Origin: Escherichia phage vB_EcoM_Schickermooser
Strand: one strand, 5' to 3'
Sequence record: NC_048196.1
Length of the DNA stretch: 64,000 nt
A program made the position numbers and the translations under genes. Under the pieces are notes generated by a model. It saw nothing but the letters and a program-made list of their open reading frames with translations, was not told where the DNA came from and made no database searches. Position 1 is the stretch's first letter; each line of letters starts with the position of its first letter. Positions 28,572 to 57,921 of the stretch are shown here, one piece after another.

Positions 28572-28650
28572 TCTTTTCTCCTCTCTTTGCGGGGAACTAT
28601 TCCCCGCTTCATGTGATATATCTTACTCTTTTTAAGAACTATGTCAACAC

Positions 28651-28872: not shown

Positions 28873-28884
28873 ACTAATCTCCTC

Positions 28885-29370
28885 TTAAAGTTTATAAATA
28901 GTCACATCGTGACCAGCTTTTACTAAAGTTTCTTTGATCATGACTTCAATGATAGCCCAATTACCTCCAGCATGACCTGCACCTATCATAGGTAGACCAA
29001 TCTTATGTGCTGGCTGATCTCCTTTATCGTAATTGTGTAAGTCCATTGCCATAGCTGCAAGAGCATCATACAGCGCATCATAATCTAGTTGACGACCTTT
29101 ACTATTGTATCCATAACGATACTGTCCATAAAGGTTGTATACCATAGGGTTAGGATAATCTTCTGGTTCCCCTAAACTAAAAGAACCAAGCTTTTTCTGG
29201 TTTCCTGCTCCTGTAGCTAAATCTGCTTCGTATGCATATGGAAACGCATATTTTATTTGTGGGGCAATACCTGCCCCCATATTACACATACAGTTGCAAC
29301 AATGAGCAATAACAGTTACTTCACCTGTTTTAGCGGCATCAATAAGATTACCTGTTTTCATTTTAAGCAT
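28885..29370 (-). CDS. macro-domain (ADP-ribose binding/processing) protein (161 aa from internal start)
   Basis: LIDAAKTGEVTVIAHCCNCMCNMGAGIA and IGLPMIGAGHAGGNW resemble the two Gly-rich macro-domain motifs; RBS AAGGAG upstream of ATG at 29370; ORF-track start 29445 would overlap the upstream gene. Confidence 0.5.
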   Translation of the reverse strand: MLKMKTGNLIDAAKTGEVTVIAHCCNCMCNMGAGIAPQIKYAFPYAYEADLATGAGNQKKLGSFSLGEPEDYPNPMVYNLYGQYRYGYNSKGRQLDYDALYDALAAMAMDLHNYDKGDQPAHKIGLPMIGAGHAGGNWAIIEVMIKETLVKAGHDVTIYKL

Positions 29371-29383
29371 TTTTAGCTCCTTA

Positions 29384-30211
29384 TTACAGAATGTGTTGTT
29401 TTGTGTAACGATCCAAGAATTCAAAGTTTTCAGCATACTTTGCAATTCGATTGTAGCCTTCAGCTAAACAGCCGAAGAAAAGTTGTTCCACATAGTAGTG
29501 TGGCAATTGGCTAAGAATGATTTTGAAGTCTTCATGATTTTGGCCCATAAGATACTTAATAGGACGAACAAGGCACTGTGCATCACGTTCTTCATTAATC
29601 ATTTTAACAAACGCTTCTGGTGTATTAATGTAGTTAAAATTCAGTTTAGCTTCAGTATCTGCTTGATTACCTTCGTATTTTGCAAAATACAAGAAGTAAA
29701 CATCATTTTTAACTTGATTTTCATCAAGAATCTCAATCAGTTTGTCTTCATGCGTTCCGGTGATATTTACATCATCAATGAACACCAACTTCTTATCACC
29801 CCAGAATTCTTTGTTGCAGTAGAATGTATCCCCATCAATAAGTTTCTTACGACTAGCTTTATCCAAGAAGCCATAATCGTTAATATAACTAACTTTACGA
29901 TGAATAATATCCAGTTCTGCTGAACGACCTTGATCATATTGTGCTTGCAACATATTAAAGTAATTAATAAAATGATCTGTCATCATTGTTGCAGCATTAT
30001 GCACATGGTTATAAGGAGAAGGAATGATAACAAATTGTTCCCCAATATGTTTCATTGCCACTTGAGCAAAAAACTGAAGTGCCAATTCTTTACCCATACG
30101 ACGCGCAGCTTGGTTACTGCCAAATTTCAATTTTGAATAATCTTTGATATCAAAAGTAGCAGTTTCCAGGTCATCAAATTTATTTGCAAAAATTTGAGTT
30201 TGATTACGCAT
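29384..30211 (-). CDS. phosphoribosyltransferase (PRTase)-domain protein (275 aa)
   Basis: PRPP-binding-type motif KKLVFIDDVNITGTHEDK. Confidence 0.55.
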   Translation of the reverse strand: MRNQTQIFANKFDDLETATFDIKDYSKLKFGSNQAARRMGKELALQFFAQVAMKHIGEQFVIIPSPYNHVHNAATMMTDHFINYFNMLQAQYDQGRSAELDIIHRKVSYINDYGFLDKASRKKLIDGDTFYCNKEFWGDKKLVFIDDVNITGTHEDKLIEILDENQVKNDVYFLYFAKYEGNQADTEAKLNFNYINTPEAFVKMINEERDAQCLVRPIKYLMGQNHEDFKIILSQLPHYYVEQLFFGCLAEGYNRIAKYAENFEFLDRYTKQHIL

Positions 30212-42697: not shown

Positions 42698-43132
42698 TCA
42701 TTTCTTCTTTCCTTTCTTTAATTTGTTGTGACCTTTACCCTTATAAAGCTTGTGATTACGAGCAGATGGGTTATTTTGGTTCTCCAGTCGGCTAACAGGT
42801 GTATTCCAAAGATTTCCTGCTACAAAAGATGCTGCCACAAGTTCTTCCAGGTATACAAAATCCAAAGCAGGTATCTTTGTTTCCCTCATCTTGCGTTCTA
42901 CATTAGACAACACGCCTTCTTCCTTGCTGTCTTCTTTTTCAATTACAGACCAACCCTCTTCCTGCCAAGCTTCCCCTCTGAACCAAGTTTCCATGTTATA
43001 ACCTTGTTCGTCGAGAATAACACCATCTCGCATCTCAAACCATTCACCACCGCAAAAATAACTGTGCTCAACACGTCTACCTTCCTTCATTGCTTCTTTA
43101 GCTTCGGTCCAAGTCAGTTTGATGTTTTGCAT
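42698..43132 (-). CDS. hypothetical protein (144 aa), first gene of the minus-strand block
   Basis: GAGGAG RBS; preceded by a TTGACA-16-TAAGAT promoter on the minus strand. Confidence 0.5.
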   Translation of the reverse strand: MQNIKLTWTEAKEAMKEGRRVEHSYFCGGEWFEMRDGVILDEQGYNMETWFRGEAWQEEGWSVIEKEDSKEEGVLSNVERKMRETKIPALDFVYLEELVAASFVAGNLWNTPVSRLENQNNPSARNHKLYKGKGHNKLKKGKKK

Positions 43133-43162
43133 TTGTTTTCTCCTCTTGTTTTGTATGAGTTG

Positions 43163-43190
43163 ATCTTAACAGGACTAAAAAGCATGTCAA
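43163..43190 (-). promoter_or_regulatory. sigma70-like promoter TTGACA-16-TAAGAT driving the minus-strand block
   Basis: Minus-strand reading TTGACATGCTTTTTAGTCCTGTTAAGAT. Confidence 0.55.
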
Positions 43191-43193
43191 TAC

Positions 43194-43222
43194 TTGATCT
43201 GAAATTATTTTCAGGTATCATA
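43194..43222 (+). promoter_or_regulatory. candidate divergent plus-strand promoter (TTGATC-16/17-TATCAT)
   Basis: Weaker hexamers upstream of 43247 gene; back-to-back with the minus-strand promoter. Confidence 0.35.
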
Positions 43223-43246
43223 TATGAACATTAACAAGAGAGGTAG

Positions 43247-43540
43247 ATGATGAACATTACTTTAGCAACTAAGAATATTTCTGAGACAATTAACGGTTTT
43301 GGTGTCATTGTAGCCTTACACGGTAACAACGAGAAATGGTTGGCTTCTTTTGAAGAGGATCGTCAGCACAACATTATTTTAGATGCTCCTATAAAAGTTA
43401 TGCATATCGTTGGTGAAAGCAAAGTGCTCACTTCCTCCCGTTCAAAAGAACAAATTACAAATGAATTAGTAAAACTGCTTGACAATGTTCTTAACATGTT
43501 TGATAATGCACCCATCGATACAAAACGTGTCTTAATGTGA
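43247..43540 (+). CDS. hypothetical protein (97 aa)
   Basis: First plus-strand ORF after strand switch; AGAGG RBS. Confidence 0.5.
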   Translation: MMNITLATKNISETINGFGVIVALHGNNEKWLASFEEDRQHNIILDAPIKVMHIVGESKVLTSSRSKEQITNELVKLLDNVLNMFDNAPIDTKRVLM

Positions 43541-48932: not shown

Positions 48933-49471
48933 GAATAACTGATGAATATGTATTCTTCTTTTCACATAAAGATGTGTTTAGTAATTGGTATATTGCACCC
49001 TTTACAGAAACTGAACCAGGTTACAATGAGACTTTCTGTTGTGTTGAGCAATATATGATGTGGCGTAAGGCTTTGCTGTTCAAGGATCATGCGATTGCAG
49101 CAGCTATCCTTGATCACTCAACTATACGTGACAACGAGAGGAAACAAGCATACTACAAACGTATGGGTCGAGCGGTATCTGGTTTTAATAATAATATGTG
49201 GGAAGAGAACCGTGAGCGTATTGTTATGCGGGGCTTATGCTTGAAATATGTACAGAATCCAGATTTGTATGCAGACTTACACCTTTACCAATACAAAACG
49301 TTTGTTGAAGCAAGTCCTTACGATAAGGTTTACGGTATTGGAATGGGAATGTATGAACCAGGGGTGCTAAACCCTGCTACCTGGAAAGGGCAGAATCTTT
49401 TAGGCAAATATCATAATAAACTGATCGAAATACTTTTCCCAGACAAAATACCGCAAAGACGATATTTGTGA
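48929..49471 (+). CDS. NADAR (YbiA-like) domain protein (180 aa)
   Basis: Hallmark blocks FFFSHKDVFSNWY..PF, FCCVEQYMMWRKALLF and EASPYDKVYGIG as in YbiA/NADAR N-glycosidases. Confidence 0.75.
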   Translation: MRITDEYVFFFSHKDVFSNWYIAPFTETEPGYNETFCCVEQYMMWRKALLFKDHAIAAAILDHSTIRDNERKQAYYKRMGRAVSGFNNNMWEENRERIVMRGLCLKYVQNPDLYADLHLYQYKTFVEASPYDKVYGIGMGMYEPGVLNPATWKGQNLLGKYHNKLIEILFPDKIPQRRYL

Positions 49472-49526
49472 TATTTTAACTTTTTTCATTTTTAGAACAA
49501 AGGTGTCACTTTGTAGCACAGAAATA

Positions 49527-49562
49527 AGGCTCCTACAGCACCGTAGAGAGCCTGTTATTTTG
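49527..49562 (+). terminator. rho-independent terminator after NADAR gene
   Basis: GGCTCCTAC-AGCACC-GTAGAGAGCC stem followed by TGTTATTTTG. Confidence 0.55.
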
Positions 49563-49715
49563 TCCTATACAAACCCTTGTCTTTTTCAGTTTGCATCACT
49601 AGGATTCGATCTGAGTGGGTTCCTGAAGGTTTACCAATAAGATTAAAGGTTATATCAAATTCCCACTATCTTTTATCTCAAAAATCCCTCAAATTATTTA
49701 AACTTTTTAAGAATT

Positions 49716-49900
49716 TACAAAAGTGAAAGTTGAAAACCAAAATTTAAAGTTTAGGAAAATTATCTTAAAATGTTAGATACAAAACAAAACTCAAAAGTCA
49801 AGGAAAATTTTAAAAATTTTGCGCGCCCACAGTATTTAAAGTTTTTTTGCTTTTACAAAAATGAAAGTACAAAAGCAAAATTTAAAGTTTACAAAAATTT
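49716..49900. repeat. degenerate A-rich tandem repeats (~68-bp period, about 3 copies)
   Basis: TACAAAAGTGAAAGTTGAAAACCAAAATTTAAAGTTTAGGAAAATT recurs as TACAAAAATGAAAGTACAAAAGCAAAATTTAAAGTTTACAAAAATT, with a partial copy between. Confidence 0.6.
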
Positions 49901-49941
49901 TTATGCAGGTGAAAATGAGAAGAGTTCTCATATGGAAATGC

Positions 49942-50021
49942 AAATGATAATGATTCGCATTTAAGTTTATAAATGAGAATGATTGTCATTTACCTTATTA
50001 AATAAGAATCAATCTCATTTA
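49942..50021. repeat. three 22-bp iteron-like direct repeats at 29-bp spacing
   Basis: AAATGATAATGATTCGCATTTA (49942), AAATGAGAATGATTGTCATTTA (49971), AAATAAGAATCAATCTCATTTA (50000); each is an internal imperfect palindrome; first copy loosely resembles a Fur box. Confidence 0.65.
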
Positions 50022-50280
50022 GAGAATGACGCGCAGGGGCGGTGTTTGTCTCGCGCTCCCGTGTCCCCTCGCCATGTAATAAGAATAACAGATCCAGCCA
50101 GGAAAGCAAGCGATTATTTTATCTTTACATTTCTTTACAAATATATAGCGCCCAGCCTACCGGCGATCAACCTTCCAACCAGTGCCCCCTGGTATGTTAG
50201 CCCCGCCTTTACGCCGTGGGGGTGGCGCTTCCTCTTCTGTATGTAAAACAGTATAAGCCCGATCCCTGGGCTTGTCAAGA

Positions 50281-50544
50281 TTATTTTTTGTTTTCTTGCC
50301 AGGATAGGACACCTAACCAAAAATACATATCGCCCCGCGCCCCTGGTGGTATCTTGCTTTCCCCGCCGCCACTGCAAGCCCATAGATAACCATTTGCGAA
50401 CGTATCAAAATGATCTATTTCTTCCACCCTATGATCGCCCAGGTTGAGAACTGTTTCAACCTTTAAGCCCGTTGCGCTTGCTACCTGGTGCACCGTGCCG
50501 CCTTGCCAGCCCAATGAGTGCATAAGGTGTAATGTAGTTGTCAT
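50281..50544 (-). CDS. possible ORF (87 aa) in GC-rich intergenic segment
   Basis: Only candidate ORF in an otherwise non-coding GC-rich stretch; no convincing RBS; may not be a gene. Confidence 0.2.
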   Translation of the reverse strand: MTTTLHLMHSLGWQGGTVHQVASATGLKVETVLNLGDHRVEEIDHFDTFANGYLWACSGGGESKIPPGARGDMYFWLGVLSWQENKK

Positions 50545-50652
50545 GGTATCGCCCTTTCTTTGTTGTGCGCCCTGGTTGGCGCGGTAGAAAGATAATAGCC
50601 CTTTTCTTTATATATAGCAAGCAAAAAGAAAATAAAAAAGATTGAAAAATGG

Positions 50653-50711
50653 TTGACGTTAACCAGACGGCGGCGTAGTATTCATCTTGTAGGGCGGCAA
50701 TGGTGCCGCTC
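50653..50711 (+). promoter_or_regulatory. promoter-hairpin cassette (TTGACG-17-TAGTAT, hairpin GGGCGGCAATGGTGCCGC)
   Basis: First copy of the repeated unit; hairpin starts 8 nt after the -10 hexamer. Confidence 0.6.
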
Positions 50712-50730
50712 ACTATTTGGAGTTAAGATC

Positions 50731-50928
50731 ATGGCAACATTGCACATTGTGGCGAAAGCTGGACAAATCAACGTAGTGGTAAACGGTTTTACTGAGTTCA
50801 GTCACCCCCAGGATGATCATGAAACGGTTTTATCTTTCATTGATTCCCTGTTAGAAATGGGAGTCATTACAGAAGACCAGCACGCTACAAAATGCAAGCG
50901 CGTTAATCAAATTGCAGGAATAGAATAA
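50731..50928 (+). CDS. hypothetical small protein (65 aa)
   Basis: GGAG RBS; ORF-track N-terminal extension LVGRQWCRS is translation of the hairpin. Confidence 0.5.
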   Translation: MATLHIVAKAGQINVVVNGFTEFSHPQDDHETVLSFIDSLLEMGVITEDQHATKCKRVNQIAGIE

Positions 50929-50934
50929 AAACTA

Positions 50935-50993
50935 TTGACAACAAACAACAACCTGATAAGATGTATCACATAGGGCGGGAAGTGGTTTCCCGC
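50935..50993 (+). promoter_or_regulatory. promoter-hairpin cassette (TTGACA-16-TAAGAT, hairpin GGGCGGGAAGTGGTTTCCCGC)
   Basis: Consensus hexamers at canonical spacing; GC-rich stem-loop 8 nt downstream of -10. Confidence 0.65.
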
Positions 50994-51018
50994 TCGTAAC
51001 AGAAGAGAGATTATCATC

Positions 51019-51291
51019 ATGGCATCATATAGCGCAACAATGATCGTAGCTGGCACAACTGGTAAACCTATGAGCGGTGGCGGATCTTTCGCTAATATCA
51101 ATATTGACGGGCGTTTATCCCTGGACGCAGCGATCGCTATTGCACGGGAAACATTTAAGAAAGAATGTAATTTCAACAAGCAAGATTATCTCGGTTTCGC
51201 TATTGAAAAAACCGCGCGCTTTGTTGATTATAAAAGCCCGAAAATGGTTGATACTACACTAAAAGCGCAAGATGTAGCGTTTTTGCTTTAA
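51019..51291 (+). CDS. hypothetical small protein (90 aa)
   Basis: AGAGAG RBS; follows cassette. Confidence 0.55.
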   Translation: MASYSATMIVAGTTGKPMSGGGSFANINIDGRLSLDAAIAIARETFKKECNFNKQDYLGFAIEKTARFVDYKSPKMVDTTLKAQDVAFLL

Positions 51292-51294
51292 GGC

Positions 51295-51350
51295 TTGACA
51301 TTAACGAATAATTTGTTAATATGTTACATAAAGCGGGAATAGTTCCCGCT
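51295..51350 (+). promoter_or_regulatory. promoter-hairpin cassette (TTGACA-16-TAATAT, hairpin AGCGGGAATAGTTCCCGCT)
   Basis: Variant hairpin without the TAGGG lead. Confidence 0.6.
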
Positions 51351-51367
51351 ATTTGTAAGGTGGTAGA

Positions 51368-51625
51368 ATGTTTTACATCAAATTAAAAGGTCACGTGATC
51401 GCGTTCAAAGATAACGCTTTTTACAGATTAGCAAAATATGCGTTAATACATCCCCACTATGTTTATATAAGGGGGCGTGATGAAATAAATATCTTTGATC
51501 AAACAACATGCGAGAACATCGAGATCCGCAAGGTTGGCGTACGTGATTATCGTACATCTTTCTACCCTTGCAAGGATTCAGCAAGTCTTTTTAAAGTATG
51601 CCAATTGTTGAAAAAAGGTGGTTAA
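51368..51625 (+). CDS. hypothetical small protein (85 aa)
   Basis: AAGGTGG RBS. Confidence 0.55.
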   Translation: MFYIKLKGHVIAFKDNAFYRLAKYALIHPHYVYIRGRDEINIFDQTTCENIEIRKVGVRDYRTSFYPCKDSASLFKVCQLLKKGG

Positions 51626-51626
51626 T

Positions 51627-52184
51627 ATGGGCCGCGAATATGTGATCCAGTCTTGGGTAAAACATGAAGCAGATGATCCGCGCATCATTCCCGATCATCT
51701 TGTCGATGAATCCACGGGCTATAGCGGGGAGCAAATAGGTAACAGATTAGCACGTAGTAACGGCAACGTAAAAGCGCGTTATGTGCGCCCTGGTTGGCTG
51801 GCAAATGGTAACGCTGATTTATCCAGTGCGGAAGATGCGAGCGACGGCGCGAAAGATAATCCTTTGTACAAAGTTGATCCGGCTTTTCGTGTCCTGGATG
51901 AATACCCCAGCAAGATAGCGGCGCTTGATGAAGCACTAGAAAGTAAGCGCATCACCTGGACCGCTTACAACATGGCAAAAAACGTACTTGATGGTAAACT
52001 GATTCAAGCGGAGAGAAAATTAGCCAAAATTGCAGCCATAGCCCAGGAGGAAGACGAGGAGACAACGGAAGAGGAAGAGTACGAAGAGATCCCGCCGTTG
52101 TTGTGTGTTGATGCTTTTCCTGATTATCAGCCGACAGAGGAAGAAAAAAGGATCGCCCTAGAAAACTTTGAAAATAGTCTTTGA
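51627..52184 (+). CDS. hypothetical protein with acidic C-terminal region (185 aa)
   Basis: GGTGG RBS before ATG at 51627; acidic tract QEEDEETTEEEEYEE. Confidence 0.55.
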   Translation: MGREYVIQSWVKHEADDPRIIPDHLVDESTGYSGEQIGNRLARSNGNVKARYVRPGWLANGNADLSSAEDASDGAKDNPLYKVDPAFRVLDEYPSKIAALDEALESKRITWTAYNMAKNVLDGKLIQAERKLAKIAAIAQEEDEETTEEEEYEEIPPLLCVDAFPDYQPTEEEKRIALENFENSL

Positions 52185-52239
52185 CATATCGCCGCCACTA
52201 GCATAATATTTACCACGTAGGGCGGCAATGGTGCCGCTC
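52181..52239 (+). promoter_or_regulatory. promoter-hairpin cassette (TTGACA-17-TAATAT, hairpin GGGCGGCAATGGTGCCGC)
   Basis: -35 overlaps stop codon of upstream gene. Confidence 0.6.
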
Positions 52240-52266
52240 ATAGTGAAATTATACAAGAGGCTTACA

Positions 52267-52362
52267 ATGATTAATAAAGAAAATAGCTTGACGGTTGGAA
52301 CGATTAACGGTATCATTCTAGCCGTTCCATTTTGGATTGTAGTAGCGGCTATTATTTTCTAA
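52267..52362 (+). CDS. small hydrophobic peptide (31 aa; not in ORF track)
   Basis: Hand-translated MINKENSLTVGTINGIILAVPFWIVVAAIIF; AAGAGG RBS; sits between two cassettes. Confidence 0.4.
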   Translation: MINKENSLTVGTINGIILAVPFWIVVAAIIF

Positions 52363-52370
52363 AAATATTC

Positions 52371-52431
52371 TTGACAACGTTTTTTAATCTGATAAGATGT
52401 ATCACATAGGGCGGCGGAATACTTCCCCGCC
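52371..52431 (+). promoter_or_regulatory. promoter-hairpin cassette (TTGACA-16-TAAGAT, hairpin GGGCGGCGGAATACTTCCCCGCC)
   Basis: Same architecture. Confidence 0.65.
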
Positions 52432-52452
52432 AAAACAAAAAAGGGTAACACA

Positions 52453-52815
52453 ATGAGCAAGCAAATCAATACTATCATGTTTAATCTGGTATCTTTCCGT
52501 GAAGATATGAAAAATTTACCACGTGAAACGGTTGATATTCATGTTTCAGCTTATCGCGCCCTTATTGACATGTTACCGCTAAAACGTGATCAACATGCCG
52601 CTAACATGATGCTTAATGCTATGCTTAAAAAGATGATTCAAACGGATCTCATCCTGGCGTATGAGTATCAAGGGCGCTTATATGCTACTTACAACAAGGC
52701 GGTACCTGGTCTGGGAAGTACCGAAGAGTTGCACGGCTTAAACCTGGATCAGAACACTTGGGATAGTATGCGCCGCGTTATGGTATGGGCCGAAAGCGGT
52801 AAAATTTACGAATAA
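52453..52815 (+). CDS. hypothetical protein (120 aa)
   Basis: AAGGG RBS. Confidence 0.55.
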   Translation: MSKQINTIMFNLVSFREDMKNLPRETVDIHVSAYRALIDMLPLKRDQHAANMMLNAMLKKMIQTDLILAYEYQGRLYATYNKAVPGLGSTEELHGLNLDQNTWDSMRRVMVWAESGKIYE

Positions 52816-52820
52816 AACGG

Positions 52821-52877
52821 TTGACACTGTTTAAAATTCTGGTATAGTTTATCACGTAGGGCGGCAATGGTGCCGCC
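52821..52877 (+). promoter_or_regulatory. promoter-hairpin cassette (TTGACA-17-TATAGT, hairpin GGGCGGCAATGGTGCCGCC)
   Basis: Same architecture. Confidence 0.65.
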
Positions 52878-52897
52878 AACAATAAAAGGTTAACATC

Positions 52898-53077
52898 ATG
52901 ACTATCATTGCAAAAACTGAGATTATAGGTTTAGATTCGATCCTCCTGGCTTATGAGGAAACTTTAAAAATGTATGTAGTGACCTATGGTGATTATGTGC
53001 GTGAATACGAATACATTGATCTTGCTTTCGAATGTTACATTCGCCAGGTCAATAAAGCCTATAACGATTATCGTTAA
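52898..53077 (+). CDS. hypothetical small protein (59 aa; not in ORF track)
   Basis: Hand-translated MTIIAKTEIIGLDSILLAYEETLKMYVVTYGDYVREYEYIDLAFECYIRQVNKAYNDYR; AAGG RBS. Confidence 0.45.
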   Translation: MTIIAKTEIIGLDSILLAYEETLKMYVVTYGDYVREYEYIDLAFECYIRQVNKAYNDYR

Positions 53078-53096
53078 AAGTTTTAGTCTTATACTA

Positions 53097-53148
53097 TTGA
53101 CAATGAGTGATAGTATAAGCATAATAACTTTTATCGGGAATACTTCCC
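53097..53148 (+). promoter_or_regulatory. promoter-hairpin cassette variant (TTGACA-17-CATAAT, hairpin GGGAATACTTCCC)
   Basis: Shorter stem. Confidence 0.5.
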
Positions 53149-53173
53149 ACTAACCAAAAAAGAGAGTAATATC

Positions 53174-53539
53174 ATGGCTATTAATATCAATGTTTCCTCT
53201 TATGCTACCCTGGCTGACACGGCTAAAATTGAATTGTCCAGCATTGAGGCGGTGCATATTAGCGCCCGTCGTTGGTTTCAACAGTCCTACGGTAACACAT
53301 ATTTTTCTTTAATGGTTGACGTTGAGATCGGCGGTAAACTGATCGAGGTGGTTAACGTTCCGTTTCAATATGGCTATGGTGATCATTTTGATACCGTCGC
53401 CCTGGAAGAATTTAGCAAGGTTATCAACCTTGAGGGCAAGGAATTTTCACGCGGCGCGTATCTTTCCCGTTTTTGCCGTGACAATGGGATCACTGTATAC
53501 AGTCATGCAAGCGATGTAAAACGTAAAAAAGATTTATAA
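53174..53539 (+). CDS. hypothetical protein (121 aa)
   Basis: AGAGAG RBS. Confidence 0.55.
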   Translation: MAININVSSYATLADTAKIELSSIEAVHISARRWFQQSYGNTYFSLMVDVEIGGKLIEVVNVPFQYGYGDHFDTVALEEFSKVINLEGKEFSRGAYLSRFCRDNGITVYSHASDVKRKKDL

Positions 53540-53545
53540 AAAGCA

Positions 53546-53604
53546 TTGACAGCACGAATAAAAAGAGTAAACTGTATTACATAGAGAGCGGGAACACTTC
53601 CCGC
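53546..53604 (+). promoter_or_regulatory. promoter-hairpin cassette (TTGACA-16-TAAACT, hairpin GCGGGAACACTTCCCGC)
   Basis: Same architecture. Confidence 0.6.
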
Positions 53605-53628
53605 CTCACTGAAAAAGAGAGAAAAATC

Positions 53629-53868
53629 ATGGCTAAATCTAAAATGTACAACGGTCACAAAAACAAAACTCATTGGAATGTAAGCCTGTGGATTAATAAC
53701 GATGAGGGATTGTATCGGTTTGCACTGGGATTGATCAATGAGTGCGGTAATAAAGATCAGGCGGCTGATTTAATGTGCTACCGTTTGAAACAGGATGGAA
53801 TCACTACAACGCCAGACGGCTTTAAGTATAGTAAAACTGCAATCCGCGCCGCTATGGTTGGAATGTAA
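53629..53868 (+). CDS. hypothetical small protein (79 aa)
   Basis: AGAGAGA RBS. Confidence 0.55.
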   Translation: MAKSKMYNGHKNKTHWNVSLWINNDEGLYRFALGLINECGNKDQAADLMCYRLKQDGITTTPDGFKYSKTAIRAAMVGM

Positions 53869-53963
53869 AGGAGACATAAAAATGAAACATCGTTCGACCT
53901 ATCTCACAAAACGTTTTAGCTTAGATCATAAATTGGGCTATTACGGAAGAAATAGAAAATAAT

Positions 53964-54023
53964 TTGACAACGTTTAAAATTAGTGTAAGATGTATCACAT
54001 AGGGCGGGAAGTGGTTTCCCGCC
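53964..54023 (+). promoter_or_regulatory. promoter-hairpin cassette (TTGACA-16-TAAGAT, hairpin GGGCGGGAAGTGGTTTCCCGCC)
   Basis: Near-identical to the 50935 copy. Confidence 0.65.
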
Positions 54024-54045
54024 AACAACAGAGAGATTAAAGATT

Positions 54046-54273
54046 ATGGCTATCAATATTGTTCGCGTATCCGGCACCGTTGGCACTTCCCAGGTTGTAG
54101 CAGTTGTAACAAACAAAAAGATTAATGATGTATGTGAGATCTTGAATAAGTGGGCTATTGCTAATTTTGGGGAATATGCAAGCGTCGAGTACATCGAATC
54201 CTACCAGGTGCCAACCATCAGCCTGACCGATCTCAACGTTGATCGCCTGTTATGCCTGGATGAATTAATCTGA
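54046..54273 (+). CDS. hypothetical small protein (75 aa)
   Basis: AGAGAG RBS. Confidence 0.55.
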   Translation: MAINIVRVSGTVGTSQVVAVVTNKKINDVCEILNKWAIANFGEYASVEYIESYQVPTISLTDLNVDRLLCLDELI

Positions 54274-54282
54274 AAAAGATTG

Positions 54283-54340
54283 TTGACACGGGAAAGAAAA
54301 AGAGTAAACTGTATTACGTAGGGCGGCAATAGTGCCGCTC
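54283..54340 (+). promoter_or_regulatory. promoter-hairpin cassette (TTGACA-16-TAAACT, hairpin GGGCGGCAATAGTGCCGC)
   Basis: Same architecture. Confidence 0.65.
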
Positions 54341-54363
54341 ACAACAGAAGAGAGATTATCACG

Positions 54364-54576
54364 ATGGCTAATATCCGCACACTGTTAAAAAATGCAAGTC
54401 AAGTTTTATTTTCTGATCACGATCATTTTAATAAAGATATTACAGGCGTGAAGAATATCAAAGATGTAAAAAGTGTTATGGGTATATATTGCAATGTTAA
54501 ACGTGTTGGAACGTTCGGTGATAAAGTATTGTACCAATCAGGTGATTACAATTTTACTTTGACGATTATTTCATAA
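54364..54576 (+). CDS. hypothetical small protein (70 aa)
   Basis: AGAGAG RBS. Confidence 0.55.
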   Translation: MANIRTLLKNASQVLFSDHDHFNKDITGVKNIKDVKSVMGIYCNVKRVGTFGDKVLYQSGDYNFTLTIIS

Positions 54577-54581
54577 AACGC

Positions 54582-54643
54582 TTGCAATACTGCAAAAATA
54601 AAGTAAACTGTATTACATCAAGGCGGCGGAATGGTCCACCGCC
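54582..54643 (+). promoter_or_regulatory. promoter-hairpin cassette (TTGCAA-16-TAAACT, hairpin GGCGGCGGAATGGTCCACCGCC)
   Basis: Same architecture. Confidence 0.6.
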
Positions 54644-54667
54644 TAACAAAGAGAAGAGGAAAATATT

Positions 54668-54835
54668 ATGATCACTTTCGCTACCCGTGAAGCCGCTCGC
54701 AACGTTGCACGTAAAGTTAACGCCGCCAACCTGGGCGCTACGCTTAAAGCCCCTGTAAAAGATGAATCAGGAAAATGGATCTTCCCTGGTCTACGTCATG
54801 CTGACAAGTTAGGTACTTTAAGCCTTAAAAAATAA
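54668..54835 (+). CDS. hypothetical small basic protein (55 aa; not in ORF track)
   Basis: Hand-translated MITFATREAARNVARKVNAANLGATLKAPVKDESGKWIFPGLRHADKLGTLSLKK; AGAGGA RBS. Confidence 0.45.
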   Translation: MITFATREAARNVARKVNAANLGATLKAPVKDESGKWIFPGLRHADKLGTLSLKK

Positions 54836-54838
54836 TCG

Positions 54839-54876
54839 TTGACTTTTCGTTATAGCGCCTTATAATGGGCGCTATA
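54839..54876 (+). promoter_or_regulatory. promoter TTGACT-16-TATAAT with inverted repeat TATAGCGCC/GGCGCTATA flanking the -10
   Basis: Consensus -10 embedded between 9-bp inverted repeat arms (54851-54859 and 54868-54876); operator-like. Confidence 0.55.
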
Positions 54877-54913
54877 GAGAAGAGAAACCAATCACCAGAA
54901 AGAGAGAAAGAAA

Positions 54914-55132
54914 ATGGCAATCCGTAAAATTAAAGTTGTTTGCATTGAATCAACTGGTGGCGCTTTTGTAGTTGGTCAGAAATATAATGCGGTTTTAATG
55001 GGCATGGATTGGAAGGTTAAAGGTCTTGATGGTTACGAATACGGCACTACTCTCGGATTGCGTGGTCGAATCGGATACGTGAGCTTAGACAACAAAGAAA
55101 AATTTGTTTTCGATATTGTTGTGAGTAAATAG
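54914..55132 (+). CDS. hypothetical small protein (72 aa)
   Basis: AGAGAGA RBS. Confidence 0.55.
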   Translation: MAIRKIKVVCIESTGGAFVVGQKYNAVLMGMDWKVKGLDGYEYGTTLGLRGRIGYVSLDNKEKFVFDIVVSK

Positions 55133-55211
55133 CATGAATTGCTAAAGACTAATCTGCAAATTGCTGTATTATCAACTAATTGAAACGAAACACATAAAGA
55201 GAAAAAACATT

Positions 55212-55433
55212 ATGATCACTTTCGCTATTGTCGCCGTTGTTGCTGGTCAAGTTTACGTAAACGATACATTCACCACAGAAGACAAGGCCGCAGGAGATAT
55301 AACCGCCGTTTACAATGAGTGCAAGGCAGTAGAAAGGATGTTAGCGCCTTGTATGCTAATGAGTGAACGCCAGGACGGAATAACAGTATTTACTAACATT
55401 GAAACAGGGTACCAAATGGTAGTAACAAAATAA
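55212..55433 (+). CDS. hypothetical small protein with hydrophobic N-terminus (73 aa)
   Basis: AAGAGA RBS before ATG at 55212; N-terminus MITFA shared with 54668 ORF. Confidence 0.5.
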   Translation: MITFAIVAVVAGQVYVNDTFTTEDKAAGDITAVYNECKAVERMLAPCMLMSERQDGITVFTNIETGYQMVVTK

Positions 55434-55436
55434 AGC

Positions 55437-55493
55437 TTGACACCGATTTAATTTTTAGTAAACTGTTACACGTAGGGCGGGAATAGTTCCCGC
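55437..55493 (+). promoter_or_regulatory. promoter-hairpin cassette (TTGACA-16-TAAACT, hairpin GGGCGGGAATAGTTCCCGC)
   Basis: Same architecture. Confidence 0.65.
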
Positions 55494-55512
55494 TCAAAAA
55501 GAGAGAAAGACC

Positions 55513-55866
55513 ATGAAAGCACAAAATGCAATTAAAGAGTACATCCTTGCCGCTATCGATTTTAATGATTACGGTATTACAACCGAAAAAGAGAAGATCG
55601 CGGAATTGATGCGCCGTTTTAATTCCGAGTACTGGTACCCTGATAACCAATCACGTTTTAATTATAGTATTGTTAAAGCACTTGCATCATGGTTACAAGG
55701 TTTGCCATCAGATATCAATATCGCTTTCGAATATTGGGAAATTGATCGCTTGTTAACATCCTGGGGATACATTAAAGAGAATAGCAGCGATGATAAAATC
55801 CAACGAGAAAGGGAAAATTATTGGCTTTATATTGCAGGCGTGATCCTTGCTTGCTCTTATGAATGA
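55513..55866 (+). CDS. hypothetical protein (117 aa)
   Basis: AGAGAGA RBS. Confidence 0.55.
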   Translation: MKAQNAIKEYILAAIDFNDYGITTEKEKIAELMRRFNSEYWYPDNQSRFNYSIVKALASWLQGLPSDINIAFEYWEIDRLLTSWGYIKENSSDDKIQRERENYWLYIAGVILACSYE

Positions 55867-55872
55867 TAAACC

Positions 55873-55927
55873 TTGACAATTTTACAAAACAGTTTAAATT
55901 AACAATATAGCGGCAATGGTGCCGCTC
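55873..55927 (+). promoter_or_regulatory. promoter-hairpin cassette variant (TTGACA-17-AAATTA, hairpin AGCGGCAATGGTGCCGCT)
   Basis: Weak -10 but conserved hairpin. Confidence 0.5.
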
Positions 55928-55945
55928 ATATGAAGAGGAAACAAA

Positions 55946-56092
55946 ATGAATACATCTAATCGCGCAGAAAAAATTCAATCTTCCAAGATCCGCAAGGCCT
56001 GGAACGAGGAAGTGATCCGCAAAGGCGACAAGCGTAATAAAACAAAGCGCGGGAAGAGTGACAAATATAATTGGATGGATTTAGAGGATTAA
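55946..56092 (+). CDS. hypothetical small basic protein (48 aa; not in ORF track)
   Basis: Hand-translated MNTSNRAEKIQSSKIRKAWNEEVIRKGDKRNKTKRGKSDKYNWMDLED; GAGGAA RBS. Confidence 0.45.
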   Translation: MNTSNRAEKIQSSKIRKAWNEEVIRKGDKRNKTKRGKSDKYNWMDLED

Positions 56093-56098
56093 CATAAC

Positions 56099-56127
56099 AA
56101 GGGCGCATCAAGCGCCCTTTCTTTTTA
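56099..56127 (+). terminator. rho-independent terminator (GGGCGC-ATCAA-GCGCCC + TTTCTTTTT)
   Basis: 6-bp GC stem followed by T-run. Confidence 0.8.
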
Positions 56128-56147
56128 CATGTAGAGGATAAACAAAA

Positions 56148-56333
56148 ATGACTTTAAACGAGCTTAAAACAGCCTACAACGCAACATTAAAAATAGCCGT
56201 GCGTTACCGTGATGCGTATGGTTTTATCGCGCAGGGCGTGATCCTGGGCTTTTCTGACGATGGTTTGATCTATGTTGATGCACATCACAACAAGGTTAAA
56301 CCTGAAAACGTCATTAGCATAAAATATCTTTAA
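56148..56333 (+). CDS. hypothetical small protein (61 aa)
   Basis: GAGGA RBS. Confidence 0.5.
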   Translation: MTLNELKTAYNATLKIAVRYRDAYGFIAQGVILGFSDDGLIYVDAHHNKVKPENVISIKYL

Positions 56334-56338
56334 AAACG

Positions 56339-56395
56339 GTTGACAGCATAACCAAGTATGATAAGATGTATCACGTAGGGCGGGAATAGTTCCCG
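56339..56395 (+). promoter_or_regulatory. promoter-hairpin cassette (TTGACA-16-TAAGAT, hairpin GGGCGGGAATAGTTCCCG)
   Basis: Same architecture. Confidence 0.65.
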
Positions 56396-56418
56396 ACCAC
56401 ATAAAAGAGAAAAACATT

Positions 56419-56631
56419 ATGACCACTATCACAACAAAACAAGAAAAAATTATTACAGACATTGCCGCAGTAGCCGCTATTGCTATTATTGGTACCTACT
56501 ATGACACCGCGCGACCTTCCTCCTTACATGAGATCGCCGCCGTTGCATCAGTTGGCGTACTGTTTTACGTTGGTAAACGCTATTTATCACCAATGATTAA
56601 CAAGCTGACACCGTGGAAAAATAAAGGTTGA
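56419..56631 (+). CDS. small membrane protein (70 aa)
   Basis: AGAGA RBS; hydrophobic segment IAAVAAIAIIGTYY. Confidence 0.55.
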   Translation: MTTITTKQEKIITDIAAVAAIAIIGTYYDTARPSSLHEIAAVASVGVLFYVGKRYLSPMINKLTPWKNKG

Positions 56632-56682
56632 TCCTGTTTTATATTGTGTTATAGTTATCGTGTAGGGCGGCAATGGTGCCGC
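56628..56682 (+). promoter_or_regulatory. promoter-hairpin cassette (TTGATC-16-TATAGT, hairpin GGGCGGCAATGGTGCCGC)
   Basis: Same architecture. Confidence 0.6.
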
Positions 56683-56702
56683 GCCCCTTTGAGGATGCAA
56701 TC

Positions 56703-56987
56703 ATGCGTAAAGCTAACACCGTGCTAATGTTTTCCCTGATTAATAATGCCGCTTACTTGTCCAACATGACGCAGGAGGGTAACACATTAACGGCAACATT
56801 CACCAATAAGCTTGACCGAGTGATCATAATCTCACTGAAAACAGTTAGTAAAGGCTTTTACTCGTTAGCTTATCATTGTATCACTGACACCGACGAGACA
56901 AGCCAGGACTATAGCGCCCCTTTCCCTGAATCAATGGCACGGGAGATCATCGCCGCCGTTGTAAATGATGGTTTGTTTACTGCATAA
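56703..56987 (+). CDS. hypothetical protein (94 aa)
   Basis: GAGGA RBS before ATG at 56703; ORF-track start 56673 runs through the hairpin. Confidence 0.55.
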   Translation: MRKANTVLMFSLINNAAYLSNMTQEGNTLTATFTNKLDRVIIISLKTVSKGFYSLAYHCITDTDETSQDYSAPFPESMAREIIAAVVNDGLFTA

Positions 56988-57004
56988 AATAATTCAGAAA
57001 AGGC

Positions 57005-57061
57005 TTGCAATAATTTTCAGACCGTGTATATTTAATTCATAGGGCGGCGGGAATAGTTCCC
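57005..57061 (+). promoter_or_regulatory. promoter-hairpin cassette (TTGCAA-16-TATATT, hairpin GGCGGGAATAGTTCCC)
   Basis: Same architecture. Confidence 0.55.
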
Positions 57062-57084
57062 TAAGCAAACGAGAGGATTACACG

Positions 57085-57204
57085 ATGAGCAAGTATACAG
57101 TAGAATACACGGTAGAAAATCCGGCAGTATCCGAAGGTAAAAAGATGACATTTGCCATCAGTATAATCGCTTTCGTTATCACTATCTTATCAATCATCTT
57201 ATAA
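57085..57204 (+). CDS. small membrane peptide (39 aa; not in ORF track)
   Basis: Hand-translated MSKYTVEYTVENPAVSEGKKMTFAISIIAFVITILSIIL; GAGAGGA RBS. Confidence 0.4.
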   Translation: MSKYTVEYTVENPAVSEGKKMTFAISIIAFVITILSIIL

Positions 57205-57214
57205 GGTGCGTACT

Positions 57215-57376
57215 ATGAAAACAACAGACATTATCAAAGAGATCGCCCTTGCCGCTGACGTTGAGATCGAGGAAGTGATCGCGCTCAACCTTACAGAAAA
57301 CGATCTGCGCAACTATGAAGCGGAAAGCGTGAAAGCAAGCGGCGCGGTCCTGGCATATAATCCGGCTAACAAGTAA
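57215..57376 (+). CDS. hypothetical small acidic protein (53 aa; not in ORF track)
   Basis: Hand-translated MKTTDIIKEIALAADVEIEEVIALNLTENDLRNYEAESVKASGAVLAYNPANK; AAGG RBS. Confidence 0.4.
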   Translation: MKTTDIIKEIALAADVEIEEVIALNLTENDLRNYEAESVKASGAVLAYNPANK

Positions 57377-57385
57377 GGGGATAAC

Positions 57386-57496
57386 ATGAATCCGAAAGAT
57401 ATGCAAGCATGGAAAGGGTACGACGATCTAAGCGCCTTGCGCAATAAGTCAAGCCGTAACCTTAGACGATTGCAAGCAAAGAAAAAGAAAAAATAG
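57386..57496 (+). CDS. hypothetical small basic peptide (36 aa; not in ORF track)
   Basis: Hand-translated MNPKDMQAWKGYDDLSALRNKSSRNLRRLQAKKKKK; AAGGGG RBS. Confidence 0.35.
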   Translation: MNPKDMQAWKGYDDLSALRNKSSRNLRRLQAKKKKK

Positions 57497-57497
57497 T

Positions 57498-57555
57498 TTG
57501 ACAAGTCCGCTTAATCTGATAATATGTATCTTGTAGGGCGGCAATGGTGCCGCTC
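57498..57555 (+). promoter_or_regulatory. promoter-hairpin cassette (TTGACA-16-TAATAT, hairpin GGGCGGCAATGGTGCCGC)
   Basis: Same architecture. Confidence 0.65.
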
Positions 57556-57574
57556 ACAAGAAGAGAGAAAAATC

Positions 57575-57859: not shown

Positions 57860-57860
57860 T

Positions 57861-57921
57861 TTGACAGCAGGCAAACAACGTAGTAAAGTTTACCACATAG
57901 GGCGGCGGAATGGTCCACCGC
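57861..57921 (+). promoter_or_regulatory. promoter-hairpin cassette (TTGACA-17-TAAAGT, hairpin GGGCGGCGGAATGGTCCACCGC)
   Basis: Same architecture. Confidence 0.65.

Follow-up and report, generated by a model that had tools for sequence, protein, structure and literature searches.

The short gap between the leftward replication/Ter block and the rightward small-gene block of the Escherichia phage vB_EcoM_Schickermooser (NC_048196.1) is very probably a compact bidirectional early-promoter region, from which the σ70 polymerase of the host would fire leftward from about position 43156 and rightward from about position 43228. All positions are those of the window, a 64,000-nucleotide stretch of the genome. 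Each block needs a promoter in the gap because the genes diverge from it, and back-to-back promoters at this divergent strand switch had been proposed in the initial annotation; that reading holds, and comparative evidence strengthens it. The two promoters do not overlap: their -35 hexamers are 3 nt apart, the predicted starts are 43156 and 43228, and the genes begin at 43132 on the minus strand and at 43250 on the plus strand. The feature is genuine, but it is an ordinary one that was to be expected, divergent σ70 promoter pairs being common.

In the deposited records only ribosome-binding sites are marked at the gap, and a literature search for transcriptomes or experimental transcription-start data of Phapecoctavirus or Stephanstirmvirinae returned none. 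The value for annotation is that two of the four transcription blocks now have a defined head in phAPEC8/ESCO13-like phages, which are therapeutic candidates, and that the start-site predictions are precise enough to be tested by 5'-end mapping.

Borders of the gap and flanking genes

The source genome belongs to Phapecoctavirus and, being phAPEC8/ESCO13-like, is 99.8 % identical to phage ESCO13. The gap had originally been placed at 43133-43246, and of these two borders the left one stands, since the minus-strand genes stop at 43132. The 144-aa minus-strand gene has its start codon at 43130-43132, the list of open reading frames and the ESCO13 annotation concur on this, and the next gene is on the plus strand. 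The right border has to be moved, as the plus-strand start is ATG 43250 and not 43247. It is this second ATG that is used in the ESCO13 and phAPEC8_ev052 annotations; in phi92-type relatives no other ATG aligns, and the Shine-Dalgarno sequence AGAGAGG (43237-43243) precedes it by 6 nt. Because the conserved plus-strand start is ATG 43250, the gap extends over 43133-43249 and measures 117 bp (table 1). Homologous gaps of 88-119 bp are present in all Stephanstirmvirinae examined.

The first protein of the minus block gave no Pfam hit, and its N-terminal part alone is conserved in Justusliebigvirus. The DUF7325 gene, which is the first of the plus block, keeps the same position in phi92 (gp216), ECGD1, PsgM04F and Tr1. 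The label replication/Ter block proved to be accurate in both of its parts: PolA, a primase-helicase, NrdD and a UvrD-type helicase are encoded there, together with TelA, TerC, a vWA-TerF-like protein and a Ter-associated PRTase. The strand switch near position 7900 is convergent, as had been described, and a symmetric hairpin (A4-stem-T4) is present there at 7886-7913. The possibility that a terminal repeat or an end of the genome is close to the gap was rejected: the record of phiWec186 begins about 1 kb away and gave two matches, but its ends share only a 148-bp assembly overlap. In an Rfam search of 42000-64000 no family reached the gathering score.

Table 1. Features of the divergent gap and the genes that border it, in window positions
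Feature	Position	Strand	Remarks
First minus-block gene, 144 aa, ESCO13 gp182 homologue	42698-43132	-	phrog_22208 and phrog_3474, both of unknown function
Divergent intergenic gap	43133-43249	.	117 bp; between minus-strand replication/Ter block and plus-strand small-gene block
Predicted minus leader	43133-43156	-	24 nt, unstructured; putative +1 is A 43156, 7 nt after the -10; fold 0.0 kcal/mol
Minus extended -10: TGt (43171-43169), then TAAGAT (43168-43163)	43163-43171	-	16-nt spacer to the -35
Minus -35 hexamer TTGACA	43185-43190	-	6/6 to consensus; 5/6 columns invariant in 9 representative sequences
Plus -35 hexamer TTGATC	43194-43199	+	3 nt from the minus -35; TTGA invariant
UP-element-like A/T tract AAAATAATTTC	43201-43211	-	10 nt upstream of the minus -35; 9/11 to AAAWWTWTTTT
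Plus -10 hexamer TATCAT	43216-43221	+	16-nt spacer; T-A-n-n-n-T invariant
Predicted plus leader	43228-43249	+	22 nt; putative +1 is A 43228; Shine-Dalgarno AGAGAGG 43237-43243; fold -1.3 kcal/mol
First plus-block gene, 96 aa, ESCO13 gp181 homologue, DUF7325	43250-43540	+	PF24011, E = 6.5e-24

Promoters and their conservation

The position-weight scan carries real signal, as is seen from the co-orientation of its top sites. Genome-wide, 40 of the 45 top-scoring sites point along their own gene block, and among the sites of at least 12 bits the co-oriented and anti-oriented ones number 13 and 0, 29 and 3, and 13 and 1 in the three non-structural blocks. A consensus scan of 41.0-45.5 kb gave 16 promoter-like sites against 13.2 ± 4.3 in shuffled sequence, which is no excess, so low-stringency matches alone mean little. 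The footprint panel was built from GenBank phage records, because an IMG/VR scan with the first minus-strand protein gave only 3 loci. It consists of 18 sequences from about six lineages of Stephanstirmvirinae, namely Phapecoctavirus, the PsgM04F/phiWec186 group, two Justusliebigvirus groups, Citrobacter Tr1 and Klebsiella KP13-26. In all 18 sequences the best plus-strand and minus-strand promoters are found at homologous positions, with 16-nt spacers and with 3-4 nt between the -35s, and the key positions of the promoters stay fixed while spacers and leaders drift and are only about 60 % identical. Comparative footprinting supports both promoters; given about six independent lineages, shared ancestry could be responsible for part of the conservation. 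Of the two Dam sites (GATC), one (43162-43165) overlaps the minus -10 and the other (43196-43199) the plus -35; neither is conserved in relatives.

On the minus strand, the promoter TTGACA-16-TAAGAT named by the initial annotation was recovered at 43190→43163, where it agrees with the consensus in 10 of 12 positions and has a TGn extended -10 in addition. Its score of 13.33 bits is the 37th highest when both strands of the 151-kb composite genome (about 303,000 positions) are scanned, and was reached by only 6 of 5000 dinucleotide-preserving shuffles of the gap. Citrobacter Tr1 and Klebsiella KP13-26 have a -35 that ends in T (TTGACT); among the nine representatives neither the TG nor the T-A-n-n-n-T varies, and the spacer is 16 nt in 18 of 18 sequences. 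Judged by the UP-element consensus, AAAWWTWTTTT, and by the position of UP elements relative to the -35, the A/T tract upstream of this promoter resembles such an element. It sits, with 0-3 mismatches, 10-12 nt upstream of the minus -35 in every lineage, and just 0.37 % of genomic 11-mers have two or fewer mismatches to the consensus. On the other strand, the same tract is part of the spacer of the plus promoter. The Shine-Dalgarno sequence GAGGAG in the minus leader (43145-43140) is invariant in five of its six columns. Membership in a repeated family of extended promoters was rejected: with up to 3 mismatches allowed, TTGACATGCTTTT occurs 45 times where 41 occurrences would be expected, and no second copy of the 22-nt leader is present in the window.

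The plus-strand promoter that had been described as the weaker one corresponds to TTGATC-16-TATCAT (43194-43221), with 9 of 12 consensus positions and 9.23 bits. This score was reached by 735 of 5000 gap shuffles (about 15 %) and is not, taken alone, beyond chance; the promoter is convincing solely through its conservation. Among relatives the -35 occurs as TTGACC, TTGATT, TTGACT and TTGACA, and the -10 is TATTAT in Tr1 and TAAGAT in KP13-26. Justusliebigvirus has a weaker -10, TACTCT, but has gained a TGG extended -10, so that the poor hexamer is compensated, whereas the good one (TATCAT) is without TG. The scores range from 8.8 to 13.3 bits across lineages, and it is in the most distant ones that the promoter nears consensus (TTGACT-16-TATTAT and TTGACA-16-TGgTAAGAT). 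Another plus-strand candidate, TTAACA-17-AATACT (43166-43194, 7.0 bits), scores below TTGATC-16-TATCAT and was rejected as an overlap artefact, being the complement of the minus -10 and -35.

A stronger plus-strand promoter, TTGACA-17-GATAAT (43479-43507, 12.6 bits), lies 46 nt ahead of the second plus gene, within the first one, and most of the downstream expression may therefore not depend on the promoter in the gap. This raises the alternative that only the minus promoter is functional, the plus match being a by-product of the constraints upstream of it and the plus block using internal promoters such as the one just described. The result of the shuffles and the coincidence of the plus spacer with the UP-like tract would agree with such a view. 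However, the conserved DUF7325 gene with its strong Shine-Dalgarno sequence would then have no other co-oriented promoter upstream, and every lineage retains TTGA, T-A-n-n-n-T and the fixed 16-nt spacer. The near-consensus form of the promoter in the most distant lineages and the gain of TG that offsets the loss in the -10 point in the same direction, and constraint on the minus promoter does not predict these features of conservation. We therefore consider it very unlikely that the minus promoter acts alone.

Proposed function of the promoter pair

With two functional promoters, the bidirectional reading takes the following form. After entry of the phage DNA, the host RNA polymerase with σ70 would initiate near 43156 in the leftward direction and near 43228 in the rightward one. 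The first of these promoters is predicted to be strong owing to its UP-like tract, consensus -35, 16-nt spacer and TGn-extended -10, and would serve the 35-kb replication/Ter block, which begins with small genes. The presumably weaker rightward promoter (TTGATC-16-TATCAT) would serve the small-gene block, of which DUF7325 is the first gene. Each leader is short and free of structure and carries a strong Shine-Dalgarno sequence. As the -35s are 3 bp apart and the predicted starts about 72 bp apart, each spacer fills the -40 to -55 region of the other promoter. We infer that a physical coupling of the two promoters is likely, either by competition for binding of polymerase or by the negative supercoiling behind a departing polymerase.

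The gap and the origin of replication

The gap had also been put forward as a candidate origin, with whole-genome GC skew as the proposed check. When this analysis was run, the cumulative skew turned at all four strand switches, which makes it uninformative on the origin. In the three non-structural blocks the skew of the sense strand amounts to 0.147, 0.142 and 0.159 regardless of orientation, and because it is equal in oppositely facing blocks it reports the direction of transcription only. That GC skew follows transcription has already been reported for rV5 (PMC3606486). Iterons or initiator repeats were not found in the gap beyond short two-copy matches, and DnaA boxes with at most one mismatch were not found within ±300 bp of it. 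Nor is its A/T content exceptional: the maximum per 40-nt window is 77.5 %, and 116 regions genome-wide reach at least 80 %. Just two 40-mers in the 151 kb reach 95 % A/T or more, and both are in the other divergent junction (ESCO13 56079-56558), which also carries clustered GTACT repeats. Origin-like features are far stronger in that junction than in the gap.

On the one hand, the cumulative GC skew has a local minimum at the gap, the gap adjoins the block of replication genes, and promoter-dependent origins require little beyond a promoter and an easily melted stretch. An origin that is or overlaps the gap could be primed by transcription from either promoter, as in the T7 primary origin or T4 oriF/oriG, with which it would share a promoter beside replication genes. 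On the other hand, in the T7 primary origin and T4 oriF/oriG the promoter is paired with an A/T-rich unwinding region, whereas the gap has no such region and its 117 bp are wholly used by two promoters and two leaders. With the skew explained by transcription and the A/T-richest 40-mers and GTACT repeats located elsewhere, an origin in the gap appears extremely improbable. The gap leaves the list of origin candidates, and the other divergent junction is indicated instead; in rV5-like phages the replication origin has yet to be defined (PMC3606486).

The gap and regulation

The suggestion that the divergent point is a control switch was not borne out either, as no conserved operator was found in the gap and the flanking proteins are unlike DNA-binding regulators. 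In a regulated switch, a phage or host DNA-binding protein at the promoters would pick the direction of firing, as CI/Cro do at λ PR/PRM, and the back-to-back geometry of the gap resembles that system. A perfect 6-bp palindrome, CTGAAA-TTAT-TTTCAG (43199-43214), is present in the spacer of the plus promoter and could be taken for an operator. However, it is degraded in phi92 (5/6) and lost in PsgM04F, and its conserved core AAAT is better explained as the UP-like tract, which keeps a fixed distance from the minus -35. The wide differences in plus-promoter strength between lineages would also suit regulation, but no repeated operator-like motif was found in the gap, and the flanking proteins (DUF7325, a phage Tudor domain, DUF7247 and Pfam-less proteins) gave no helix-turn-helix or repressor-like hit. 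Moreover, this group of phages is strictly lytic and has many other σ70-like promoters. A regulated switch is for these reasons quite unlikely.

Comparison with known systems

At λ PR/PRM two divergent σ70 promoters start about 70-80 bp apart, and the stronger one hinders open-complex formation at the weaker. The gap also has two divergent σ70 promoters, with a similar distance between the predicted starts. However, in λ the operator is repeated three times and two repressor genes lie alongside, whereas neither a conserved operator nor a regulator gene was found at the gap, and the phage is lytic. A second likeness is to the E. coli ilvY/ilvC type of pair, in which negative supercoils behind a strong promoter can activate a weak divergent partner (PMC4469952); the gap likewise has a presumably strong promoter and a close, weak divergent partner. 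The coupling of the chromosomal pair has been shown experimentally (summarised in PMC4469952), whereas for the gap it is what we infer.

In rV5, back-to-back σ70 promoters were expected by the authors at an analogous divergent junction, and were found there (Kropinski et al. 2013, PMC3606486). These promoters, predicted and annotated between genes 10 and 11, are TTGACT-17-TATAGT leftward and TTGACA-17-TACGAT rightward. Like Schickermooser, rV5 is a large lytic myovirus with four alternating transcription blocks and with GC-skew turns that match the strand switches. However, it belongs to another subfamily, Vequintavirinae, and its junction is flanked by unrelated genes (a fucosyltransferase and an Srd-like HNH protein). 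The rV5 gap is 184 bp long and its -35s are separated by 13 nt, whereas in Schickermooser the figures are 117 bp and 3 nt; blastn gave no alignable sequence.

The third comparison concerns the T4-like phages. Over 92 nt, the minus cassette of the gap shares 74 % identity with a promoter-leader cassette that is present in Mosigvirus WFK and in phage PTE-Eco05; for 118 promoter cassettes of the phage's own genome, identity to this T4-like cassette is 0.685 at most. In the T4-like phages the cassette directly follows an annotated terminator, a position typical for early promoters (PMC2839356). Homology of the gene that follows it to the first minus-strand gene was rejected, as BLASTP gave no alignment; the regulatory part alone is common to both. 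The PeSLs (promoter-early stem-loops) of T4-type phages are conserved regulatory cassettes of about 100 bp that comprise an A/T tract, a near-consensus σ70 early promoter, a short leader, a Shine-Dalgarno sequence and a start codon (Arbiol et al. 2010, PMC2839356), and by definition they also have a stable G/C stem-loop, either inside the promoter or beside it (PMC2839356). The minus cassette similarly unites an A/T tract, a σ70 promoter, a Shine-Dalgarno sequence and a start codon. It differs in lacking the stem-loop, the place of which is taken by the divergent promoter: no hairpin was found within the gap, and the leaders fold at 0.0 and -1.3 kcal/mol. A further difference is that PeSLs have been described in T4-like phages only.

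Elsewhere in the same genome, at 50.6-61.5 kb, there are about 20 PeSL-like promoter-hairpin cassettes, which fit the idea of cassette exchange. Their hairpins were folded copy by copy; the RNAalifold consensus consists of 4 pairs only, MAFFT having misregistered stems of unequal length.

A more far-reaching proposal would make the promoter pair an interlocked unit, in which the spacers act as mutual UP regions, one polymerase is accommodated at once and the ratio between the two blocks is hard-wired, and would make its minus half a mobile cassette shared by Stephanstirmvirinae and T4-like phages. We regard this combination as unlikely; if true, the shuffling of PeSL-type regulatory cassettes would reach beyond the T4 group. 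The wider interest of the gap is modest, and its T4-like resemblance and the PeSL-like array downstream are possibly more interesting, since they bear on the shuffling of small early genes in large lytic phages.

Position and limits of the gap

The non-coding gap between the minus-strand replication/Ter block and the plus-strand small-gene block is a real, expected and ordinary feature of this genome, and the observation of divergent promoters at this strand switch is confirmed with a correction of 3 nt. Around the gap, 41500-45500 matches Escherichia phage ESCO13 and a dozen further Phapecoctavirus genomes at 99.8 % identity; these are phAPEC8-like lytic E. coli myoviruses of ~150 kb in the Stephanstirmvirinae. 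Joining the window to the remainder of ESCO13 gives a composite genome of 151,410 bp with four transcription blocks of alternating direction, whose junctions are two convergent and two divergent, the gap being one of the divergent pair. The label of the replication/Ter block is borne out by PolA, a DnaB/Toprim primase-helicase, NrdD, a UvrD-type helicase and the tellurite-resistance-like (Ter) gene set located inside it. The strand switch near 7900 is convergent, as had been claimed, and carries a symmetric hairpin whose flanks could let intrinsic termination work both ways.

The minus-strand gene start at 43132 (144 aa) agrees with the ORF list and with two independent deposited annotations. 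A plus-strand gene follows on the other side, as described in the initial annotation; its start is moved from 43247 to the annotated 43250, the second of two adjacent ATGs, which is the sole one aligning in phi92-type relatives and lies 6 nt past the Shine-Dalgarno sequence AGAGAGG. Therefore the gap is 117 bp long. The gene on its minus side varies by lineage (183 aa in phi92, 55 aa in ECGD1), and the gap still aligns throughout. The flanking proteins match DUF7325, a phage Tudor domain or DUF7247, or have no Pfam match, and their function is unassigned.

Several small peculiarities were seen in and around the gap. The first 10 nt of the plus gene, ATGAACATTA, also occur in its leader. The copy in the leader begins 5' of the predicted transcription start and would give a mini-ORF of 8 codons that ends at 43250; relatives lack this repeat. 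The minus-side gene is three codons longer close to its N-terminus in phAPEC8 (L020) and an IMG/VR contig (L003), where GATGTTTTG (9 nt) is duplicated in tandem just inside the gene start. In phiWec186 (LC739535), an extra gene with its own TTGTCAAC...TTGACA back-to-back motif is inserted just 3' of the DUF7325 gene; the 148-bp identical overlap between the ends of this record (L018/L019) was considered as a terminal repeat and rejected as an assembly artefact.

Features of the window and of other genomes (bare coordinates are window positions; L-numbers are pieces of other phage genomes)
Feature	Position	Strand	Remark
Structural genes	end at 7882	plus
Convergent-junction hairpin	7886-7913		AAAAGGGAACC-cgcaaa-GGTTCCCTTTT
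Replication/Ter genes	7946-43132	minus
Ter gene set	22088-30211	minus
vWA-TerF-like	22088-22882	minus
TelA	24272-25384	minus
SprT-like protein	25381-25971	minus
TerC	27597-28571	minus
ComF-like PRTase	29384-30211	minus
T4-like match	43123-43211	minus
Gap	43133-43249
Predicted minus start	43156	minus	A
GATC (Dam) site	43162-43165		3' end of minus -10
Minus promoter	43190->43163	minus	TTGACA-16-TAAGAT
Plus promoter	43194-43221	plus	TTGATC-16-TATCAT
GATC (Dam) site	43196-43199		plus -35
Palindrome	43199-43214		CTGAAA-TTAT-TTTCAG
UP-like tract	43211->43201	minus	AAAATAATTTC
Direct repeat, 10 nt	43224-43233, 43250-43259		ATGAACATTA
Predicted plus start	43228	plus	A
Small genes	start 43250	plus	~39 kb
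Internal promoter	43479-43507	plus	TTGACA-17-GATAAT
ORF-poor stretch	49472-50650
Cassette array, single small genes	50,653-61,500	plus	~20 genes
Array -35 starts	50653, 50935, 51295, 52181, 52371, 52821, 53097, 53546, 53964, 54283, 55437, 55873, 56340, 56628, 57498, 57861, 58301, 58576, 59376, 59648, 61425	plus
Nucleotide-metabolism and recombination genes	outside window	minus
Other divergent junction	ESCO13 56079-56558 (L017 6079-6558)		480 bp, non-coding, outside window
GTACT repeats, five, clustered	L017 6333-6364		other divergent junction
High-A/T tracts	L017 ~6366-6410, ~6461-6505		other divergent junction
T4-like cassette, Mosigvirus WFK	L011 1501-1587
T4-like cassette, PTE-Eco05	L025 601-688

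The two promoters and their conservation

Bare consensus matches prove little: scanned for the consensus at low stringency, 41.0-45.5 kb gives 16 promoter-like sites, no excess over shuffled sequence (13.2 +/- 4.3). A log-odds scan, which scored both hexamers from assumed frequencies, penalised the spacer and rewarded a TG, was run over both strands of the composite genome; 40 of its 45 top-scoring sites are co-oriented with their own gene block, and at 12 bits or more the co-oriented sites outnumber the anti-oriented ones in each of the three non-structural blocks (13/0, 29/3 and 13/1). By these counts the scan carries biological signal. The minus promoter, found as originally described and with a TGn extended -10 as well, scores 13.33 bits (rank 37 of ~303,000 positions), and the candidate for the weaker plus promoter 9.23 bits (top 0.09 %). 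Of 5000 dinucleotide-preserving shuffles of the gap, 6 reach the minus score and 735 the plus score; therefore the minus promoter stands on its own sequence and the plus promoter does not.

Support for the plus promoter comes from conservation. The homologous gap was compared in 18 genomes of about six lineages (the window with phAPEC8; PsgM04F with phiWec186 and the IMG/VR contig; the phi92 and ECGD1 groups of Justusliebigvirus; Citrobacter phage Tr1; Klebsiella phage KP13-26), and in all 18 the best plus and minus promoters occupy homologous positions, with spacers of 16 nt and -35 hexamers 3-4 nt apart. In nine representatives, the invariant columns are five of six in the minus -35, both TG bases, TTGA of the plus -35 and T-A-n-n-n-T of each -10; the minus Shine-Dalgarno sequence is mostly invariant, and the plus one has 2/7 invariant columns and 80 % mean identity. 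Identity in these representatives is ~75 % in the plus spacer, which contains the UP-like tract, and in the minus leader, and only ~60 % in the remaining minus spacer, the 3 nt separating the -35s and the plus leader. The most distant lineages keep the plus promoter near consensus (TTGACT-16-TATTAT in Tr1, TTGACA-16-TGgTAAGAT in KP13-26); in Justusliebigvirus a poor -10, TACTCT, is preceded by TGG, whereas the good TATCAT of the window has no TG. As read from the alignment, this variation matches what selection for promoter function would predict, a pattern not predicted from constraint by the opposite promoter alone, and the promoter interpretation of the gap is well supported by conservation. 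The two Dam sites overlapping promoter elements are not kept in phi92, ECGD1, PsgM04F, Tr1 or KP13-26, and the overlap is probably incidental.

Inside the first plus-strand gene lies a further, near-consensus candidate promoter (11/12, 12.6 bits), 46 nt 5' of the second plus gene (start 43553). Given this promoter, the plus genes beyond the first may have little need of the weak one in the gap.

Leaders, upstream tracts and possible interplay

With +1 set 7 nt past each -10, the predicted starts are 72 bp apart; for Phapecoctavirus or Stephanstirmvirinae the literature search yielded neither mapped start sites nor transcriptomes. The predicted leaders (24 nt minus, 22 nt plus) are A-rich, unstructured (0.0 and -1.3 kcal/mol predicted fold energy) and end in a strong Shine-Dalgarno sequence. 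The distal UP-element consensus, AAAWWTWTTTT, has a canonical position; AAAATAATTTC matches it in 9/11 positions, 10 nt 5' of the minus -35 and within the spacer of the plus promoter. A similar tract with 0-3 mismatches recurs 10-12 nt 5' of the minus -35 in every lineage; across the genome, only 0.37 % of 11-mers come within two mismatches of the consensus. An A5 tract from the spacer of the minus promoter lies ~13-17 nt 5' of the plus -35. Since each spacer holds the upstream tract of the other promoter, the two are interdigitated, each in the upstream-contact region of the other.

Two outcomes are possible by analogy. Closely spaced back-to-back promoters interfere with each other in lambda PR/PRM, and the gap promoters could do likewise. 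Alternatively, the weak plus partner could be activated by negative supercoiling behind the strong minus one, as a weak divergent partner is in ilvY/ilvC (summarised in PMC4469952).

Is the gap a switch or an origin?

The proposal of a control switch was not borne out. Of the single palindrome in the gap, phi92 has a degraded form and PsgM04F has none; its conserved core is better explained by the UP-like tract, and no DNA-binding domain is recognisable among the flanking proteins.

The suggested origin fared no better. The proposed GC-skew check does place a minimum at the gap, but every turn of the cumulative G-C curve is a strand switch (maxima at window ~7,900 and composite ~82,500, minima at window ~43,000 and composite ~119,000). 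Because sense-strand skew hardly differs among the three non-structural blocks, whatever their direction (0.147, 0.142 and 0.159), skew reflects transcription only, a conclusion likewise reached by the authors of the rV5 paper (PMC3606486). The gap holds no repeat family, only short two-copy matches, no DnaA box was found within +/-300 bp, and its A/T content peaks at 77.5 % in 40-nt windows, below a threshold of 80 % that 116 genome regions reach. A promoter-primed replication origin at the gap would be compatible with the sequence, but nothing positive supports it.

The only two 40-mers of at least 95 % A/T in 151 kb, in tracts of ~45 bp, both lie in the other divergent junction, where the GTACT repeats are also clustered. 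By its sequence that junction looks much more origin-like than the gap and is much the better candidate for an origin or an unwinding element.

Possibly related cassettes

Two leads are more novel than the gap itself: a resemblance to T4-like phages and an array of repeated cassettes. In blastn the gap alone also matches T4-like genomes, those listed being Mosigvirus and other Straboviridae of 164-169 kb, at one place per genome (~75 % identity, E 5e-6 or weaker; E 3e-6 for phage WFK in a separate search). In WFK and PTE-Eco05 the match is upstream of a 72-aa ORF, and in WFK it sits between this ORF and an annotated terminator hairpin. An A/T tract, ACATGCTTTT across the -35 and spacer start, an extended -10 (TGTTA..AT) and an identical 22-nt leader with Shine-Dalgarno sequence, CAAAACAAGAGGAGAAAACAAA, are shared; the proteins downstream are unrelated. 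Identity over 92 nt is 74 %, compared with 70-73 % for the true orthologues in Tr1 and KP13-26, 0.546 +/- 0.039 for random 92-mers and 0.555 +/- 0.044 (maximum 0.685) for 118 strong, -35-anchored promoter cassettes of the phage's own genome. The resemblance could reflect cross-family horizontal exchange or strong convergence.

The array belongs to the small-gene block, whose first part is separated from it by ~1.2 kb without a sizeable ORF; this stretch has several 40-mers of at least 85 % A/T (49462-49904), and the ESCO13 annotation of the matching region has one small minus-strand ORF only. Each gene of the array is preceded by one repeated cassette, in the order A-rich tract, TTGACA, 16-17 nt spacer, TAnnnT, ~8 nt, hairpin, Shine-Dalgarno sequence and ATG. 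The hairpins have conserved G/C (TAGGGCGG...CCGCYC), a mean of -14.1 kcal/mol versus -3.8 +/- 2.8 for random 38-mers, compensating variation in the upper stems, no T-run and no match to Rfam families. Because this hairpin is absent in the gap, the gap promoters form a different promoter class in the same block.

Comparison with known systems

The array cassettes fit the definition of promoter-early stem-loops (PeSLs) of T4-type phages and fall into the subclass whose stem-loop comes after the -10 (PMC2839356); no description of PeSLs outside T4-like phages was found in the searchable literature. The minus cassette of the gap has the look of a regulatory unit of the PeSL kind, shared with T4-like phages but without the stem-loop.

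For rV5, four transcription units were proposed, with bidirectional promoters expected at both divergent junctions and reported between genes 10 and 11; 33 sigma-70-like promoters, 11 of which have an extended -10, were also noted (PMC3606486). The gap between these genes holds TTGACT-17-TATAGT leftward and TTGACA-17-TACGAT (annotated P11) rightward, the same back-to-back architecture as here, although its -35s are 13 nt apart, the genes on either side are unrelated and the two gaps do not align in sequence. The promoter pair of the gap is therefore of a kind already known and expected from rV5, and it is better supported here.
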